From positions 9,006 through 73,005 of the forward strand of contig CAYLRA010000003.1 of the NCBI GenBank assembly GCA_964386045.1: 64,000 nucleotides of DNA, read 5' to 3'. This DNA is from an uncultured Verrucomicrobiaceae bacterium (GTDB lineage Bacteria > Pseudomonadota > Gammaproteobacteria > Pseudomonadales > CAMLJR01). Shown piece after piece: positions 58,501 through 62,090 of this stretch. The stretch's first letter is position 1, and every line of letters begins with the position of its first letter. The translations under genes were made by a program, and so were the position numbers. The notes under the pieces are model-generated. The model was not told where the DNA came from. It did not search any database and saw nothing but the letters and a program-made list of their open reading frames with translations.

Positions 58501-60249
58501 ATTCGCGCCGGCGGCGACATCGGCGCCGCCAGCATCGTGATCCAGCACGCCGACCAGCACTCGATCAGCGAAATCCTGGCCGGCGGCGATATCCGCTACG
58601 GCGTCGAGGTACTGCCGTCCGGCCAGGTCTCGCTCGGCATCGGCCAGATCCGCATCAGCGGGCCGGGCCGCCTCGACGTGATCGCCGGCGGCGACATCGA
58701 CCTCGGCATCTCCGGCGGCATCGAATCGCTCGGCAACTACAACAGCAGCAACCGGGCGATCGCCGACAACGGCGCCGACATCACCGTGATGGCGGGCATC
58801 AACGGCGCCACCGCGGTGACCGACGAATCGCTCTACGCCGGCTTAGCGCAGCGCTATTTCGCGGAGAGCGATGCGCTGACGACCAGCTTCATCGACTGGT
58901 TCGCCGCCGGCGGTTTCGACGGCGACGCGGCGCAGCTGGTCGGCGTCTTCACTGGCCGTGCCTATGGCAGCAACGCACAGGCGATCGCCGAGTTCGGCAC
59001 GCTGCCGGTACTGACGCGCCAGGTCATCGCGCTGGAGGCTTACCAGCTGCACAAGGCGGCGGTGCAGTCGAGCGCGTCGGCGGCCGACTACGCGGCGGCG
59101 GGCGGTCACCGCGGCGCCTACTCGGCGGAGCTGGTCGATTTCGTCAGCTCCGAGCGCTTCGCCGGCGAACTCGCCAGTCATGTCGCCGCGGTGACGGGAG
59201 AGAGCTACGCCTCTCGTCGCGATGCGGCGGCGGCGCTGGCGCTGCTGTCGGCGGACCGGCAGCACGCCGTCGCGCGCGCGGCACTCGACAGCGCGCCGTT
59301 GATCGCGCGCCGCGAACTGGTGCTCGACACGCTGGTGGCGGAGGTGCGCAGCGGCGGCATCGAGGATGCCCGCGGCTTCCTCGGCAATCGGGGCGGGTTG
59401 AACGGTTTCGAGCGCAGCGATGCCGCGATCGGGCTGCTCTTTCCCGGCGACGACTGGCGCGGCGATTTCAGCCTCGCCTTCACCGCGCTGCGCACGCTCG
59501 ACGAGGGCGACATCAACATCTTCACGCCGGGCGGCAAGATCGACGTCGGCCTCGCCGGCACCGTGGCCGGTTTCAACAAGAGCGCCGACCAGCTCGGCAT
59601 CGTCACCTCGCGCTACGGCGCCATCAACGCCATCGCGCGCGACGACATCAACGTCAACGCCTCGCGCATCTTCTCGCTCGACGGCGCGCCGATCACGCTC
59701 TGGTCGAGCCAGGGCGACATCGACGCCGGCAAGGGGGCGAAGACCGCCGTCAACGTGCCGCCGCCGCAGTTCGTGCTGCAGGAGGACGGAACGATCTCGA
59801 CGGTGTTTCCGCCGAGCGTCGCCGGTTCTGGCATCCAGGCGGCGAACAATCTGCAGAAGCGCGCCACCGACCTGGGCGCACTGGTCGACGGCGCCATCCT
59901 CGTCGACCGCCAGCGCTTCCACCGCAGCCTGGCCGGCGGCAACGCCTACCTGTTCGCGCCGCGCGGCACCATCGATGCGGGCGATGCCGGCATCGCCGTC
60001 GGCGGCGACCTGTTGCTGGCAGCACAACAAGTCGTCGGTGCCGACAACATCAGCGTCGGCGGCATTTCGATCGGCGTGCCGACCACCACCGCGGTCAGCG
60101 CCAACACGATCAGTCTCGGCGACGTCGCATCGAGCGCGACGGAGTCGGCCACCAGTTCGATGAACGATGCGATCAGGGAGACCGCCGAGGCGCTGGCCGA
60201 GGCGTCGGTGGCCTTCGTCACCGTCGACATCATCGGTGTCGGCGAATGA
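49519..60249 (+). CDS. Giant TpsA exoprotein (filamentous-haemagglutinin-type beta-helix, 3,576 aa)
   Basis: N-terminal TPS domain (NRAILNWESFNIGRDASVRFDQPS...ALNRIGG...SEIFGQLSANGQIYLINNNGILFG), then thousands of residues of Gly/Asp/Ala-rich beta-helix repeats. The C-terminus is of the FhaB-family DUF3739 type (LFAPRGTIDAGDAGI...). Alternative starts at 49534 and 49597. Confidence 0.85.
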   Translation: MEILTMKVRRLDRHSDRRLDLHPGSTMTESSMDSRDWRQRPLPRLLVAVTCSALLFSSSAPLYAAPPVNALPVAAGNWLQAGSAASATVGNAMTVTQSSNRAILNWESFNIGRDASVRFDQPSASASALNRIGGNAPSEIFGQLSANGQIYLINNNGILFGEGAQVNVRGLVASTLNIDSDQFLNGTLGSAIASGDAIFAGGSAVDAAIIVDSGARLVAESGGQILMFAPTVENRGEIVTPDGQTLLAASSDRVYLVNSDRDSDLRGLLVEVGTGGDVRNVGRIIAERGNITLAGLAVNQGGTLRATTSVDVNGSIRLVARDGATAVNRSTSTDNRFIANQFLDGADELTGTSGDYLPQATRTGTVTLAQGSLTEVVADDSGKSATDAALQPQSRIQMLGATIALERDARVRAPAGRVDLVATTDPATVPRPGEARIGDGRIHLAEGSSIDVSGEHVLLPVERRTIEVELRGDELKDAPLQRDGVLRGKTVRVDIHQGSPLISDLSPWLATVRKGVRERMTDGGTVNLLSAGEVVVAGGVIDVSGGSISYEAGPVSTTKLLSLGGIVDIGVANPNQRYDGILGQGESIHPKWGKTIFGSNSLFERGTWHDGYTDGAGGGLLNIETPLLYGFDRLDLRAHTVQGQRQRIAAIEPSASRLNVNLAVGNSIVERILRLSQQASSQSLAVGDAIPGDAADTPMMISAEALNRSGIGSIALKTHGDAEVTADADLQLRPGAAIAIDAATITVDGRLRSAGGSIALTTGQQPVAVTDANAQFPLRLGAGALLDVSGNWSNDLFETARGAVPTGRVARDGGSIELFADGDLLIADGARLLADAGAQLTSGNQLIGGDGGRIALTTDATVNDDAGSRLQLPADALSAYGFGRGGTLSIEANAIAVGEASADPLTLLLDEAFFARGGFGSFELNANRHGIRIADGASIALRQRNYEINDIQAASRQRSGDSVSPLARIVTLRDELRGAVDLSLTAVRGAFGALGQGRIHIGSGSRIDGDAGARIAIAGDDSIYIDGALNAPGGSISIDLKLPPNADTKENYRADLAVWFGSGAALNVAATRELRQNSAGLLLADIFDAGTIAVNAQRGAIVAEPGSLFDVSGARFAIDRQRFSGTPLLGHYRDNVAAAAGSIEFSAAEALLIHGDLRGAGVTGGQSGSLAFRLDRNLRSIPIAGSSFPVGDLQIELQQALPAWAGLDFGAALPTALRGRGLVGADAVMAGGFGSLTLGAANTDNDLSPGAISGYGVVAFASDIDAGALSLVDTLWLDATQIDLRGHRVAIGAGQVRLGQDDNGITDTQNATAQYLRTATAGSGELQLDGRFIELLGNVGISGAERVTLNSSGDIRLRALTGIDPATGIAGRVLAPAQLQTPANLHLRAAQIYPSTLTDYTIRLTGADSLFSTSASGGARTPILAAGGSLKVDAPRIEHGGVLASPLGEILLGTAATREITLLAGSNLDVSASQPVPFGRLRADIDWIYPILASAPLVIAAPPEKRVELTADAIDMRDGARIDVSGGGDITAFEFIAGPGGSRDFLDAEHAGGGFAVVPWLGSEIAPHDTVEMAGSGIASGQVVWLEGGNGLPAGNYAVLPAHYALLPGAYLVTPVGGGWSPGQRVTTTAGTQIVAGRLGRAFGAGQASAWSGFSIETGEVVRARSQYIERSGNDYFADTGVDLARDAGRVVIDADSALQLNGVIGSQSQQGRGAQLDIVANAIEVVESTGSGGAAIQLAADALNGLGVDSLLLGGRRSREGGDTRIEVSADSVVIRGGAELSVPDLLLAARDEVTLESGASIRGSGASSVETERFLLDGDGAFLRASTASQADVVRGNVDGDRGMLTLAEGSSISGVRSVLLDATADMELQGALALEQGSLNLTANRISLGDAPAGGGVSFTPAQLAALNARELRLSSRSSIDFHGSIDFASDDVQFNAGALRSMVAGDVDVTAARSLQLSNTGDVVAPASNSGGGTLRLAAARVELGNERDDDTRMTLDGFDRVELGAAQLTQQIIGQGLFELAVGGDLAMTADRVTVAGGDDTRIEAGGAVTLARAGADPLGAATPMGGTLAVNAQRIVQGGVIDLIGGALALTANGAGADDGIVLLAGSETRVAGHSIAAPQGWVSGDAGAIRLHSTNGSIEAQAGAVVDLAGGEHGGDAGLLSIGAANGDVDWQATTHANAVAGASGGSLVVDKRTLADAGQWAALAGSAGFDRRVHLRARSGDVAIDSDIRAADIEIAADGGSLLLAATLDASGGKGGRVGLHAGADLTLTESARIDASASAADGRGGRVELGTQGALNSGGESGRLLLAAGSRIDVAGGGGDGRGGSVHLRAPRVAANSDVAVDIEAGAVIAGAETVVVEGVQRYDSDTLGSALLAMALGEADSFMAGEAAIAQRLAAVQGISVRPGIEVRSDADLTVSGGDIDLSGWRFGGDDRPGVLTLRARGDIVLRASLLDGLVDDVSELAFLTPLPNRVLLPGESWSYRLVAGADGDAAAPNAVNGGAGDLIIADGADIITGAGSIDLAAGGNIEAERVDSVIASLGLSAYSTYGADPFTGFDLPLPVPDTGTLHPALLFFTGAQYLMYPERGGDVSISAGGDIRFARAQGAEREHFFSDWLVRIAGDYGTLTGLTPPFTATTWGVWASYFSYGDQWGGGAANAQGVAVLGGGDLRLDAGRDIVNLNAALPVTGKQTGRLEGGLPVENRVQLLGGGDLFATAGRDIVSPRVLVDRGEAAFRAGGGIGAASGGGLDALFAIADTRLDVRAIGDIAIGAVTNSTLIPQSRFQALFTNPNVNLLPESYFFTYTDVARVNLASAGGDISLNHDSRALLETFQSRWQISRFLPGVGGVINLNAVGKDMFSLYPGSLDASALSGDIALHGETTLFPSSHGTLRLFSGNDIRVHESGTVRMTDVPLDQLAFAHNPTDTFFTAPNTLGGFDVGAAARLLGNRPAPLDYTPIHTGDTAPNWITALHGDIDGLNVVLPKQTRIRAGGDIGAASIVIQHADQHSISEILAGGDIRYGVEVLPSGQVSLGIGQIRISGPGRLDVIAGGDIDLGISGGIESLGNYNSSNRAIADNGADITVMAGINGATAVTDESLYAGLAQRYFAESDALTTSFIDWFAAGGFDGDAAQLVGVFTGRAYGSNAQAIAEFGTLPVLTRQVIALEAYQLHKAAVQSSASAADYAAAGGHRGAYSAELVDFVSSERFAGELASHVAAVTGESYASRRDAAAALALLSADRQHAVARAALDSAPLIARRELVLDTLVAEVRSGGIEDARGFLGNRGGLNGFERSDAAIGLLFPGDDWRGDFSLAFTALRTLDEGDINIFTPGGKIDVGLAGTVAGFNKSADQLGIVTSRYGAINAIARDDINVNASRIFSLDGAPITLWSSQGDIDAGKGAKTAVNVPPPQFVLQEDGTISTVFPPSVAGSGIQAANNLQKRATDLGALVDGAILVDRQRFHRSLAGGNAYLFAPRGTIDAGDAGIAVGGDLLLAAQQVVGADNISVGGISIGVPTTTAVSANTISLGDVASSATESATSSMNDAIRETAEALAEASVAFVTVDIIGVGE

Positions 60250-62090: not shown

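Follow-up and report, generated by a model that had tools for sequence, protein, structure and literature searches.

Gene Content of the Locus

The stretch of DNA considered here (64,000 nucleotides (nt) of contig CAYLRA010000003.1, assembly GCA_964386045.1, from an uncultured bacterium; below, the window) carries a gene for an ExbB-type motor subunit in which a predicted periplasmic cassette, consisting of a DUF2341 domain and a LamG-like domain, is fused to the membrane core. The gene stands in a cluster with a two-partner secretion (TPS) pair, TpsB and TpsA, an ExbD-type partner, a TonB/TolA-like protein, a Porin_5 outer-membrane protein and a coiled-coil protein. Judging by its sequence matches, the fusion is a further member of a known, widespread and named family that includes ExbB2 (PA0693) of Pseudomonas aeruginosa, a relation missed in the initial annotation of this DNA. 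The coordinates of all features are collected in Table 1.

Table 1. Features of the fusion gene, of its cluster and of the adjacent exopolysaccharide (EPS) locus; positions are those of the window or, where indicated, of L001 (aa, amino acids; AF2, AlphaFold2; pLDDT, predicted local distance difference test; TM, transmembrane segment)
Feature	Position	Strand	Evidence and remarks
ExbB2-type fusion gene	60246..62090	+	614 aa from 60246; more likely 602 aa from ATG 60282
Cleavable Sec signal peptide MKLRSKLSSFLLAVLLLVPGISQA	60282..60353	+	Hydropathy, basic n-region, conserved cleavage site
DUF2341 half of the cassette, β-sandwich	60354..60761	+	Pfam PF10102; opens WWNDQWPYR; AF2 strands with pLDDT >90
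LamG/ConA-like jelly-roll half of the cassette	60762..61301	+	Pfam PF13385; Foldseek; PDB profile matches 5hon, 4qvs
Gly-rich flexible linker AEQLGDGGGGHGSDFWNVIVGSQDE, ~27 residues	61302..61382	+	pLDDT <50 at residues 349-364 (602-aa numbering)
TM1 AVLILLMVMAAICFAVMIG, then cytoplasmic loop	61395..61451	+	Residues 384-402, hydropathy 2.91; long AF2 helix
MotA/TolQ/ExbB core	61728..62036	+	Pfam PF01618; TM2 61815-61886, TM3 61911-61982
TpsB transporter, PdtB-like	47891..49531	+	POTRA_2 and ShlB (Pfam); 38% identical to PA0692
TpsA, 3576 aa, PdtA-like	49519..60249	+	TPS domain and C-terminal DUF3739 (Pfam); NCBIfam adhes_NPXG
ExbD/TolR-type partner (B subunit)	62093..62497	+	Pfam PF02472, 98.4 bits; 50% identical to PA0694
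TonB/TolA-like protein	62557..63207	+	N-terminal TM, poly-Pro rod (run of 9 Pro), C-terminal domain of ~90 aa; gene position corresponds to PA0695 tonB4
Porin_5 outer-membrane protein, 5' portion of the gene (truncated at the window end)	63265..64000	+	Translation; 35% identical to PA0696
Coiled-coil protein, 204 aa, signal peptide then coiled coil	L001:14683-15297, just past the window end		28% identical to PA0697
155-aa protein	L001:15328-15795		Next after the coiled-coil gene; no YbjN homologue, unlike PA0698 at this place in P. aeruginosa
Exosortase, XrtD-type, fused to EpsI	34698-36305	-	TIGR04152, 573.8 bits against a cut-off of 400
Exosortase-type EPS genes	37751-43094	-	Upstream of the cluster, divergent
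FxDxF-type PEP-CTERM protein	43275-44105	-	Between exosortase and TPS cluster
VPLPA-CTERM protein	44965-45777	+	Between exosortase and TPS cluster

Architecture of the Fusion Protein

The open reading frame (ORF) of the fusion shows the GC pattern 0.68/0.45/0.85 by codon position, as in the real genes of the window. Its first ATG (60246) overlaps the stop codon of the upstream TpsA gene (ATGA), and the ATG at 60282 is the more likely start, since the public gene call (P0001, 602 aa) and the N-termini of homologues agree on it; the signal peptide is retained with either start. Three domains, all over the curated Pfam cut-offs, were found in the 614-aa product, namely DUF2341 (residues 88-153, E 1.2e-10), Laminin_G_3 (residues 199-338, E 1.3e-14, 55 bits against a cut-off of 27.6) and MotA_ExbB (residues 495-597, E 5.5e-27, 94.5 bits against 22.9).

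An (A/S)-x-A site followed by an invariant WWN is present in all 30 aligned homologues, and the signal peptide is therefore almost certainly cleaved between MKLRSKLSSFLLAVLLLVPGISQA and WW, giving a mature protein that begins with WWND. In an AF2 model based on 30 homologues (mean pLDDT 81.8), the periplasmic part is all-beta with pLDDT >90 and is followed by a disordered linker and long helices; the cassette of ~316 aa modelled alone reached a pLDDT of 93.4 and a predicted template modelling score (pTM) of 0.91. Foldseek comparison of the LamG half with the PDB pointed to the lectin-like jelly-roll of TeNT/BoNT Hc (E 1e-10 for TeNT Hc) and to domain 4 of the arabinanase AbnA (target-normalised TM-score 0.74). 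No solved structure spanning the whole cassette was found by Foldseek in the PDB, the best query-normalised TM-score being ~0.5. The cassette is acidic (median isoelectric point 4.8, net charge -12), and known peptidoglycan-binding domains (OmpA-like, LysM, SPOR) were absent from it in the Pfam scan. Many LamG domains bind proteins, and this fold alone is no proof of lectin activity.

The similarity to DUF2341 and LamG noted in the initial annotation was thus confirmed by Pfam, and that to LamG also by the structure search. The periplasmic module, put there at ~400 aa, is shorter in the mature protein, ~350 aa, and consists of the 316-aa cassette and the 27-aa linker. The stretch WWNDQWPYRLPIAVD, which had been quoted as the DUF2341 opening, lies outside the Pfam DUF2341 envelope, but it corresponds to the canonical first strand of the cassette, the motif W(W/Y)xxxWxYRKxI that opens each tandem unit of the giant protein P0226 (see below).

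Three hydropathy peaks (residues 384-402, 529-547 and 561-579, in the 614-aa numbering) and positive-inside signals after TM1 and TM3 lead, together with the helices of the AF2 model, to a predicted topology with three TM helices, the N-terminus outside, a large cytoplasmic loop of ~120 aa between TM1 and TM2 and a cytoplasmic C-terminal tail. The helix AVLILLMVMAAICFAVMIG, quoted earlier as a TM helix, is TM1; four Lys/Arg residues follow within 15 residues (loop KGIYVSRVQK), and two more TM helices come after this positive-inside loop. The cassette, placed after a cleavable signal peptide and before this loop, is predicted not to be cytoplasmic, and both the architecture and the N-out topology proposed earlier hold.

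The C-terminal part was matched by Foldseek to TolQ/ExbB chains with target-normalised TM-scores of 0.70-0.77. The equivalents of Thr145 (TM2), Thr178 and Pro187 (TM3) of TolQ are kept in the alignments to 8odt and 8vlw, where FGTVIG, AATVMG and AIPA of the fusion stand against FGTVWG, IATAIG and AIPA of Escherichia coli TolQ (8odt). These proton-path residues are invariant in 43 family members, and the motor core looks complete and functional by its sequence. Invariant positions in the same 43 sequences amount to 30 of 65 in the core, 26 of 136 in the DUF2341 half, 9 of 180 in the LamG half and zero in the linker. The scores fall below the NCBIfam equivalog cut-offs for tolQ (TIGR02796, 131.6 against 221), exbB (TIGR02797, 70.1 against 206.2) and the exbB2 type (TIGR02805, 65.3 against 135.35), so that the protein belongs to a separate subfamily, neither housekeeping ExbB nor TolQ.

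High-GC DNA yields long spurious ORFs, and many long ORFs do occur here on the opposite strand, but nothing was found that favours an annotation artefact, i.e., a plain ExbB translated from a downstream start, with the first 380 codons being non-coding or belonging to a separate gene. This explanation is refuted, and its probability is practically nil: the frame is single and unbroken with a coding pattern in the third codon position (GC3), hundreds of full-length homologues of constant length conserve the N-terminal part at the protein level, the cassette was modelled by AF2 with confidence (pTM 0.91), and no internal Met between the cassette and TM1 is used as a start by the homologues. The antisense ORF 59946-61652 (minus strand, 568 aa), which overlaps the gene, was rejected as a high-GC artefact without the GC3 pattern of the plus-strand frame.

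The Family and Its P. aeruginosa Member

A search of 1.84 billion representatives of 50%-identity clusters gave 591 clusters at E <= 1e-30. Among the best 150 of them, at least 136 are full-length fusions of 540-720 aa matched from end to end, and a further seven are giants (2,000-7,900 aa) in which 5-20 stretches are matched; the giant cassette proteins include P0121, P0133, P0224, P0226, P0266 and P0269. The three giants scanned with Pfam contain 4-13 tandem DUF2341-LamG units, and every unit of P0226 opens with WYxxxWxYRKxI. The recurrence of tandem copies with the same opening motif marks the cassette as a mobile two-domain unit, present in one copy in the window fusion.

The fusion was also found on plasmids of Klebsiella, Burkholderia, Cupriavidus, Methylosinus and other genera. 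The Klebsiella plasmid copy, used as a query, gave named members in many Pseudomonas species, Achromobacter, Bordetella, Serratia entomophila and P. aeruginosa. The P. aeruginosa member (P0326, 615 aa, 904 member sequences) contains the three Pfam domains of the window fusion, with which it shares 37% identity from end to end (BLASTP, residues 7-602 against 5-599, E 5e-101). It was identified as ExbB2 (PA0693) because its locus, L055, matches the published list from PA0690 (pdtA) to PA0701a (PMC7035377, PMC2729926). The genes there follow in the order TpsA (4,180 aa, TPS and DUF3739), a 200-aa DUF772 protein, TpsB (544 aa), the fusion, ExbD, a weakly TonB-like protein, Porin_5, a 220-aa protein, YbjN, a PpiC-type rotamase, a 141-aa protein, LysR and an AraC-type regulator. 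TpsB, ExbD, Porin_5 and the coiled-coil protein of the window are 28-50% identical to their P. aeruginosa counterparts.

Earlier publications describe exbB2-exbD2-tonB4 as a putative TonB system, "still uncharacterized", in the PdtA/PdtB cluster, which belongs to the PhoB/sigma-VreI regulon and is controlled by phosphate starvation (PMC7035377). The co-travelling of TPS, exbBD and PA0696 homologues was pointed out in 2009 (PMC2729926), and a 2025 survey of MotAB relatives lists DUF2341 among the unexplained N-terminal appendages (PMC12505986). The statement in the initial annotation that DUF2341-ExbB fusions have no experimentally defined role agrees with PMC7035377 and PMC12505986, and a discussion of the cassette in ExbB2 was not found in the literature.

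Conservation of the Gene Set

Synteny was studied by tblastn of the window proteins against 34 genome loci with full-length fusions (L002-L035). In about 30 of them, as far as the flanks reach, TpsA with DUF3739, sometimes with TpsB between, is accompanied by the genes of the fusion, its ExbD partner, the TonB-like protein, Porin_5 and the coiled-coil protein; loci of Spongiibacteraceae, Ketobacteraceae, Kangiellaceae, Cellvibrionaceae, Nevskiales and Nitrosomonas are among these, one of them from a cultured strain, N. oligotropha Nm45. Together with a rotamase gene, the same gene set occurs in a Verrucomicrobiota genome (L050, 34% identity), and it is also found in another NCBI assembly (L052) and on a Methylosinus plasmid (L056), in the latter behind genes of a VreA-like protein, an extracytoplasmic function (ECF) sigma factor and FecR. 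A clinical IncFIB/IncHI1B plasmid of Klebsiella pneumoniae (L053; NZ_CP065459.1, 1-13800) carries the whole PA0690-PA0701-like cluster with a GC content of 0.60-0.64 against 0.48-0.57 in the flanks; tpsB is frameshifted and tpsA is cut at the record start. This copy was apparently acquired horizontally and is decaying. A DUF3739 TpsA is also present on 10 of the 12 plasmid records carrying the fusion. A functional link of the fusion to TpsA is strongly supported by this synteny.

A smaller set was found in two places. Within the fetched flanks of L035 only the genes of the fusion, ExbD, the TonB-like protein and the coiled-coil protein are present, with no TPS or porin there, and on a Methylomagnum ishizawai plasmid (L057, 11602-22293) the same four genes have no adjacent TpsB or Porin_5, TpsA being 17 kb away. 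These four proteins probably form an inner-membrane/periplasmic complex, since their genes persist together without TPS or porin; no other gene accompanies those of the motor as constantly as that of the coiled-coil protein. Genes of PhoX and a further alkaline phosphatase are found within a few kb of the four-gene set of L057, reminiscent of the control by phosphate starvation in P. aeruginosa.

Partner Genes in the Window

The junctions from tpsB to Porin_5 measure -13, -4 (or +32), +2, +59 and +57 nt, which fits one tightly packed operon, whose gene set is kept across phyla; the ExbD gene begins 2 nt downstream of the fusion. Two G+C-rich hairpins at 47480-47550, the second of which ends in a T-run like an intrinsic terminator, follow the gene of a 518-aa protein (45854-47410, plus strand) situated directly upstream of tpsB and showing a weak match to the PstS-family PBP_like_2 (E 1.4e-5, under the cut-off). 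Because of these hairpins, tpsB appears to open its own transcription unit after an intergenic region of ~480 nt. A Pho-box scan of the window gave four matches with three mismatches against 3.98 expected, none of them upstream of tpsB, and no convincing Pho box was seen when the region upstream of tpsB was read by eye. No ECF sigma, FecR or VreA-like genes are present among the neighbours of the window cluster.

The TM Asp of ExbD (INVTPMLDLAY) is aligned to the Asp of INVTPFIDV in the ExbD chains of 6tyi and 7ajq. Relatives of the TonB-like protein are annotated as "energy transducer TonB". The full Porin_5 gene (L001:12984-14669; PF16930, E 3e-157) encodes an N-terminal extension in the periplasm, in which two conserved elements were seen, the helical motif DLLxLLVxEGV(I/L) and a nearly invariant, strand-like N-terminal motif V(R)VPY(V/I)PxxV(K/R)DxIRDxV, kept from Verrucomicrobiota to Pseudomonas; the VRVPYVP part may be a handle (TonB box) for the TonB-like protein. 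A profile search of PDB sequences gave no solved relative of Porin_5. The outer-membrane genes of the cluster are those of the ShlB-type TpsB and Porin_5, and Pal, TolB and CpoB are absent from it. The N-termini of TpsB proteins are variable, with no conserved TonB-box-like motif before POTRA1, and the extreme C-terminus of TpsA is not conserved, conservation being limited to internal DUF3739 motifs.

Exosortase Neighbourhood

The exosortase locus near the cluster had been regarded in the initial annotation as an XrtA locus; this assignment fails, as XrtA scores 186 against a cut-off of 208 and the enzyme is of the XrtD type. In the window's subfamily, EPS genes (export, outer-membrane, chain-length, tyrosine-kinase and ATPase functions) lie within 10 kb downstream of the cluster and co-directional with it in 13 of the 27 loci with enough sequence, and an exosortase gene is found at that place in one more, which makes 14 of 27 by tblastn (L004, L006, L007, L009, L011-L013, L017, L018, L023-L026 and L033, ~4-10 kb downstream of the fusion). 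Between the EPS and TPS/motor modules lie genes of small proteins whose tails have the form VPxPA-TM-RRR. P. aeruginosa-type loci without EPS genes would make the adjacency look coincidental, a view reversed for the window's subfamily by the tblastn results. A link of the whole TPS/motor module to EPS systems is plausible, since the neighbourhood is kept through rearrangement. No exosortase EPS genes are nearby in eight loci of other clades (L050-L057), including that of P. aeruginosa, which keep the cassette. Nothing relevant to a link of exosortases with TPS or ExbB was found by a literature search aimed at it.

Possible Function

The best explanation of these data is a dedicated Ton/Tol-like motor serving the TPS/porin module, with cassettes for docking or ligand binding. 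By its sequence, the fusion is the A subunit, which forms the pore, of a motor of the ExbB-ExbD-TonB or TolQ-TolR-TolA type, presumably driven by the proton-motive force. The Sec signal peptide is predicted to export the N-terminus, and the linker of ~27 residues tethers the cassette of ~316 aa to TM1. By analogy with the solved 5:2 complexes of ExbB and TolQ, five cassettes on loose tethers may surround the ExbD dimer and the TonB-like rod as a crown in the periplasm. In the weakest step of this scheme, the crown would act as a system-specific docking or ligand-binding module, for which the candidate partners are the coiled-coil protein related to PA0697, Porin_5 with its N-terminal extension, and the TpsA polypeptide or its DUF3739 end. 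The TonB-like protein would transmit force to an outer-membrane component, for which Porin_5 is the best candidate, and the module would serve the giant TpsA surface protein, being induced by phosphate starvation in P. aeruginosa and usually situated beside an EPS locus in the window's subfamily. In our opinion, this explanation, taken as a whole, is about evenly balanced between being right and wrong. The earlier interpretation of the fusion is reasonable and partly supported; binding of a glycan, of peptidoglycan or of the TpsA chain by the cassette, suggested there, is hypothetical.

A number of observations weigh against this motor scheme. The TonB-like protein is only weakly TonB-like (TonB_2, E 0.0039, 17.7 bits, under the cut-off of 22), and its C-terminal domain gave non-significant PDB profile matches to TolA, HasB and TonB at one region (E 0.6-0.8). 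Canonical TonB and TolA have a conserved His of the SHLS type in the TM segment. The corresponding segment YLPLAMGIAVVIGAVVVAMLF has no His, and the coupling of this protein to the ExbB/ExbD pair may therefore differ from that of canonical TonB/TolA. No gene of a TonB-dependent transporter was found in the operon here or in related loci, and no TonB box is demonstrated in the cluster. The invariant residues of the cassette are largely a generic signature of the DUF2341/LamG fold, shared with the tandem cassettes of giant extracellular proteins, and single out no system-specific interface. To our knowledge, TPS secretion is generally held to be independent of an envelope motor. Transposon mutants in PA0695 (the tonB homologue) and PA0696 showed unchanged VreI-induced virulence in zebrafish embryos (PMC2729926).

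Three other roles of the cassette were weighed. In the first of them, TpsA would be an extracellular scavenger and Porin_5 a channel gated by the TonB-like protein, and the cassette, as a binding protein built into the motor, would capture an incoming glycan or phosphorylated polymer on the periplasmic side. HxuA/B/C provides a precedent for TPS coupled to TonB-powered uptake (PMC5422565). The P. aeruginosa cluster is induced by phosphate starvation alongside phosphatases and phosphate porins, PhoX and an alkaline phosphatase lie beside the Methylomagnum copy and a weakly PstS-like gene lies upstream in the window; the VRVPYVP strand of Porin_5 could act as a TonB box, and LamG and AbnA domain-4 folds are often carbohydrate-binding. 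However, homologues of PhoX, the alkaline phosphatase and the PstS-like protein were not found in the flanks of the other loci, the window has no Pho box beyond chance, Porin_5 is without a solved relative or demonstrated gating, and a cassette tethered to an inner-membrane motor is oddly placed for a substrate shuttle. We regard uptake as rather unlikely. Still less probable, though not by far, is an anchor to the cell wall, in which the cassette would bind the glycan of peptidoglycan and fix the ExbB pentamer to the sacculus, replacing or reinforcing the anchoring by ExbD/TolR/MotB. Peptidoglycan is the only abundant periplasmic glycan, the lectin-type fold faces the periplasm on a linker long enough to span to the wall, and every clade keeps the cassette whatever the neighbouring genes, which fits a universal ligand; yet the cassette is acidic and has none of the OmpA-like, LysM or SPOR domains, the adjacent ExbD keeps its full periplasmic domain, and in rotary models a fixed pentamer would presumably block the movement thought to drive TonB.

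Very improbable is the binding by the cassette of the exopolysaccharide, or of a PEP-CTERM/VPLPA-CTERM protein, of the exosortase locus, by which matrix export would be coupled to the motor; as regards the polysaccharide, proposed earlier as a ligand, this is speculation. It would agree with exosortase EPS genes within 10 kb in 14 of 27 subfamily loci and in the window despite differing gene orders, and with VPxPA-CTERM exosortase substrates encoded directly between the two modules. But cassette motors without exosortase genes within 10-18 kb occur in P. aeruginosa, on the Klebsiella and Methylosinus plasmids, on a Burkholderia replicon listed with the plasmids and in Verrucomicrobiota, and the locus is XrtD-type, not XrtA as first assumed. 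In addition, the polymer is not expected free in the periplasm, as Wza-type export encloses it. Neither the acidity of the cassette nor its invariant residues help in choosing among uptake, peptidoglycan and EPS binding.

An extension of the dedicated-motor explanation may also be put forward, in which ExbB2-type motors would be a third, hitherto unrecognised class of Ton/Tol-like energisers, dedicated to type Vb (two-partner) secretion, with the TonB-like protein acting on Porin_5 or TpsB and the five-fold crown gripping the periplasmic part of TpsA (its DUF3739 end, for example) or a matrix polymer. We consider it unlikely. If true, a surface fibre of 3,500-4,200 aa would be retained, released or retracted in a manner dependent on the proton-motive force, this would be the first energy-coupled TPS system, and in environmental bacteria it would be tied to exosortase-dependent matrix formation.

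Significance and Comparison with Known Systems

The 5:2 ion-driven motors (MotAB, ExbBD, TolQR, GldLM, ZorAB) are under intense structural study, and the roles of their accessory domains are an open question. The family considered here is large and extends over several phyla, with members in P. aeruginosa, Achromobacter, Bordetella, Burkholderia and on Klebsiella plasmids, and places a folded domain of 35 kDa on each A subunit. Its strict linkage to a giant TpsA and Porin_5 points to a possible energy-consuming step in a secretion pathway believed to require no such input, TPS-based uptake being the alternative. The exosortase EPS adjacency in environmental Gammaproteobacteria is a further lead, for which no precedent turned up in the literature. 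P. aeruginosa allows direct testing with existing genetics and a known inducing condition (low phosphate, sigma-VreI). In our opinion, the interest lies less in the single gene than in the TPS/motor/porin module, its link to exosortases and P. aeruginosa as an experimental system.

With the ExbB-ExbD-TonB and TolQ-TolR-TolA systems of E. coli (5sv0, 6tyi, 9ddo; 8odt, 9ddm) the window system shares the core of three TM helices, at the TM-scores given above, the Thr of TM2, the Thr and Pro of TM3 and the TM Asp of the ExbD type, as well as a third component built of a TM anchor, a rod rich in Pro and a small domain at the C-terminus. The fusion differs from them in the extra periplasmic part of ~350 aa behind a cleavable signal peptide. 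Canonical ExbB/TolQ has a short periplasmic N-terminus and no signal peptide, and the contrast drawn with it in the initial annotation is justified.

ExbB of Serratia marcescens (6ye4, 7ajq) reportedly has an N-terminal periplasmic extension that selects the TonB paralogue HasB. Its chains are among the sequence matches of the fusion, and an extra periplasmic N-terminal segment for partner specificity is a precedent for the docking idea. However, that segment is short (some tens of residues, in chains of 281-287 aa), is no folded cassette of two domains and belongs to a classical haem receptor system dependent on TonB.

HxuA/HxuB/HxuC of Haemophilus influenzae resembles the window cluster in having a TpsA/TpsB pair coupled, in Hxu both genetically and functionally, to a TonB-energised outer-membrane step (PMC5422565). 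The Hxu system uses a classical TonB-dependent transporter and the housekeeping ExbBD-TonB, whereas the window cluster has its own motor and Porin_5. The cassette itself is shared with giant surface proteins (MshQ/PilY-type and archaeal pilus-associated ones), in which the DUF2341-LamG unit with the W(W/Y)xxxWxYR(K)xI opening is repeated 4-20 times in 2,000-7,900 aa; DUF2341 has been associated with adhesins (PMC4858521, PMC11809585). In contrast to these extracellular multi-repeat proteins, the window fusion bears a single cassette, predicted to be periplasmic, on an inner-membrane motor subunit.

The closest known relative is the PA0693-PA0695 system of P. aeruginosa (PA0690-PA0701), which has the same order of signal peptide, DUF2341, Laminin_G_3 and MotA_ExbB in the fusion and, gene for gene, the same neighbours (PA0690-PA0697), i.e., TpsB, TpsA with DUF3739, the fusion, ExbD, the TonB-like protein, Porin_5 and a coiled-coil protein of ~200 aa. 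The two fusions belong to distinct subfamilies, with 33-38% identity between the subfamilies and at least 42% within the window's clade. In the window, tpsA follows tpsB and the pair lies immediately upstream of the fusion, the vreAIR, transposase-like phdA, YbjN, PpiC-isomerase and LysR genes are missing from the cluster, and an XrtD exosortase EPS locus is its neighbour where P. aeruginosa has the Hxc/LapA genes.

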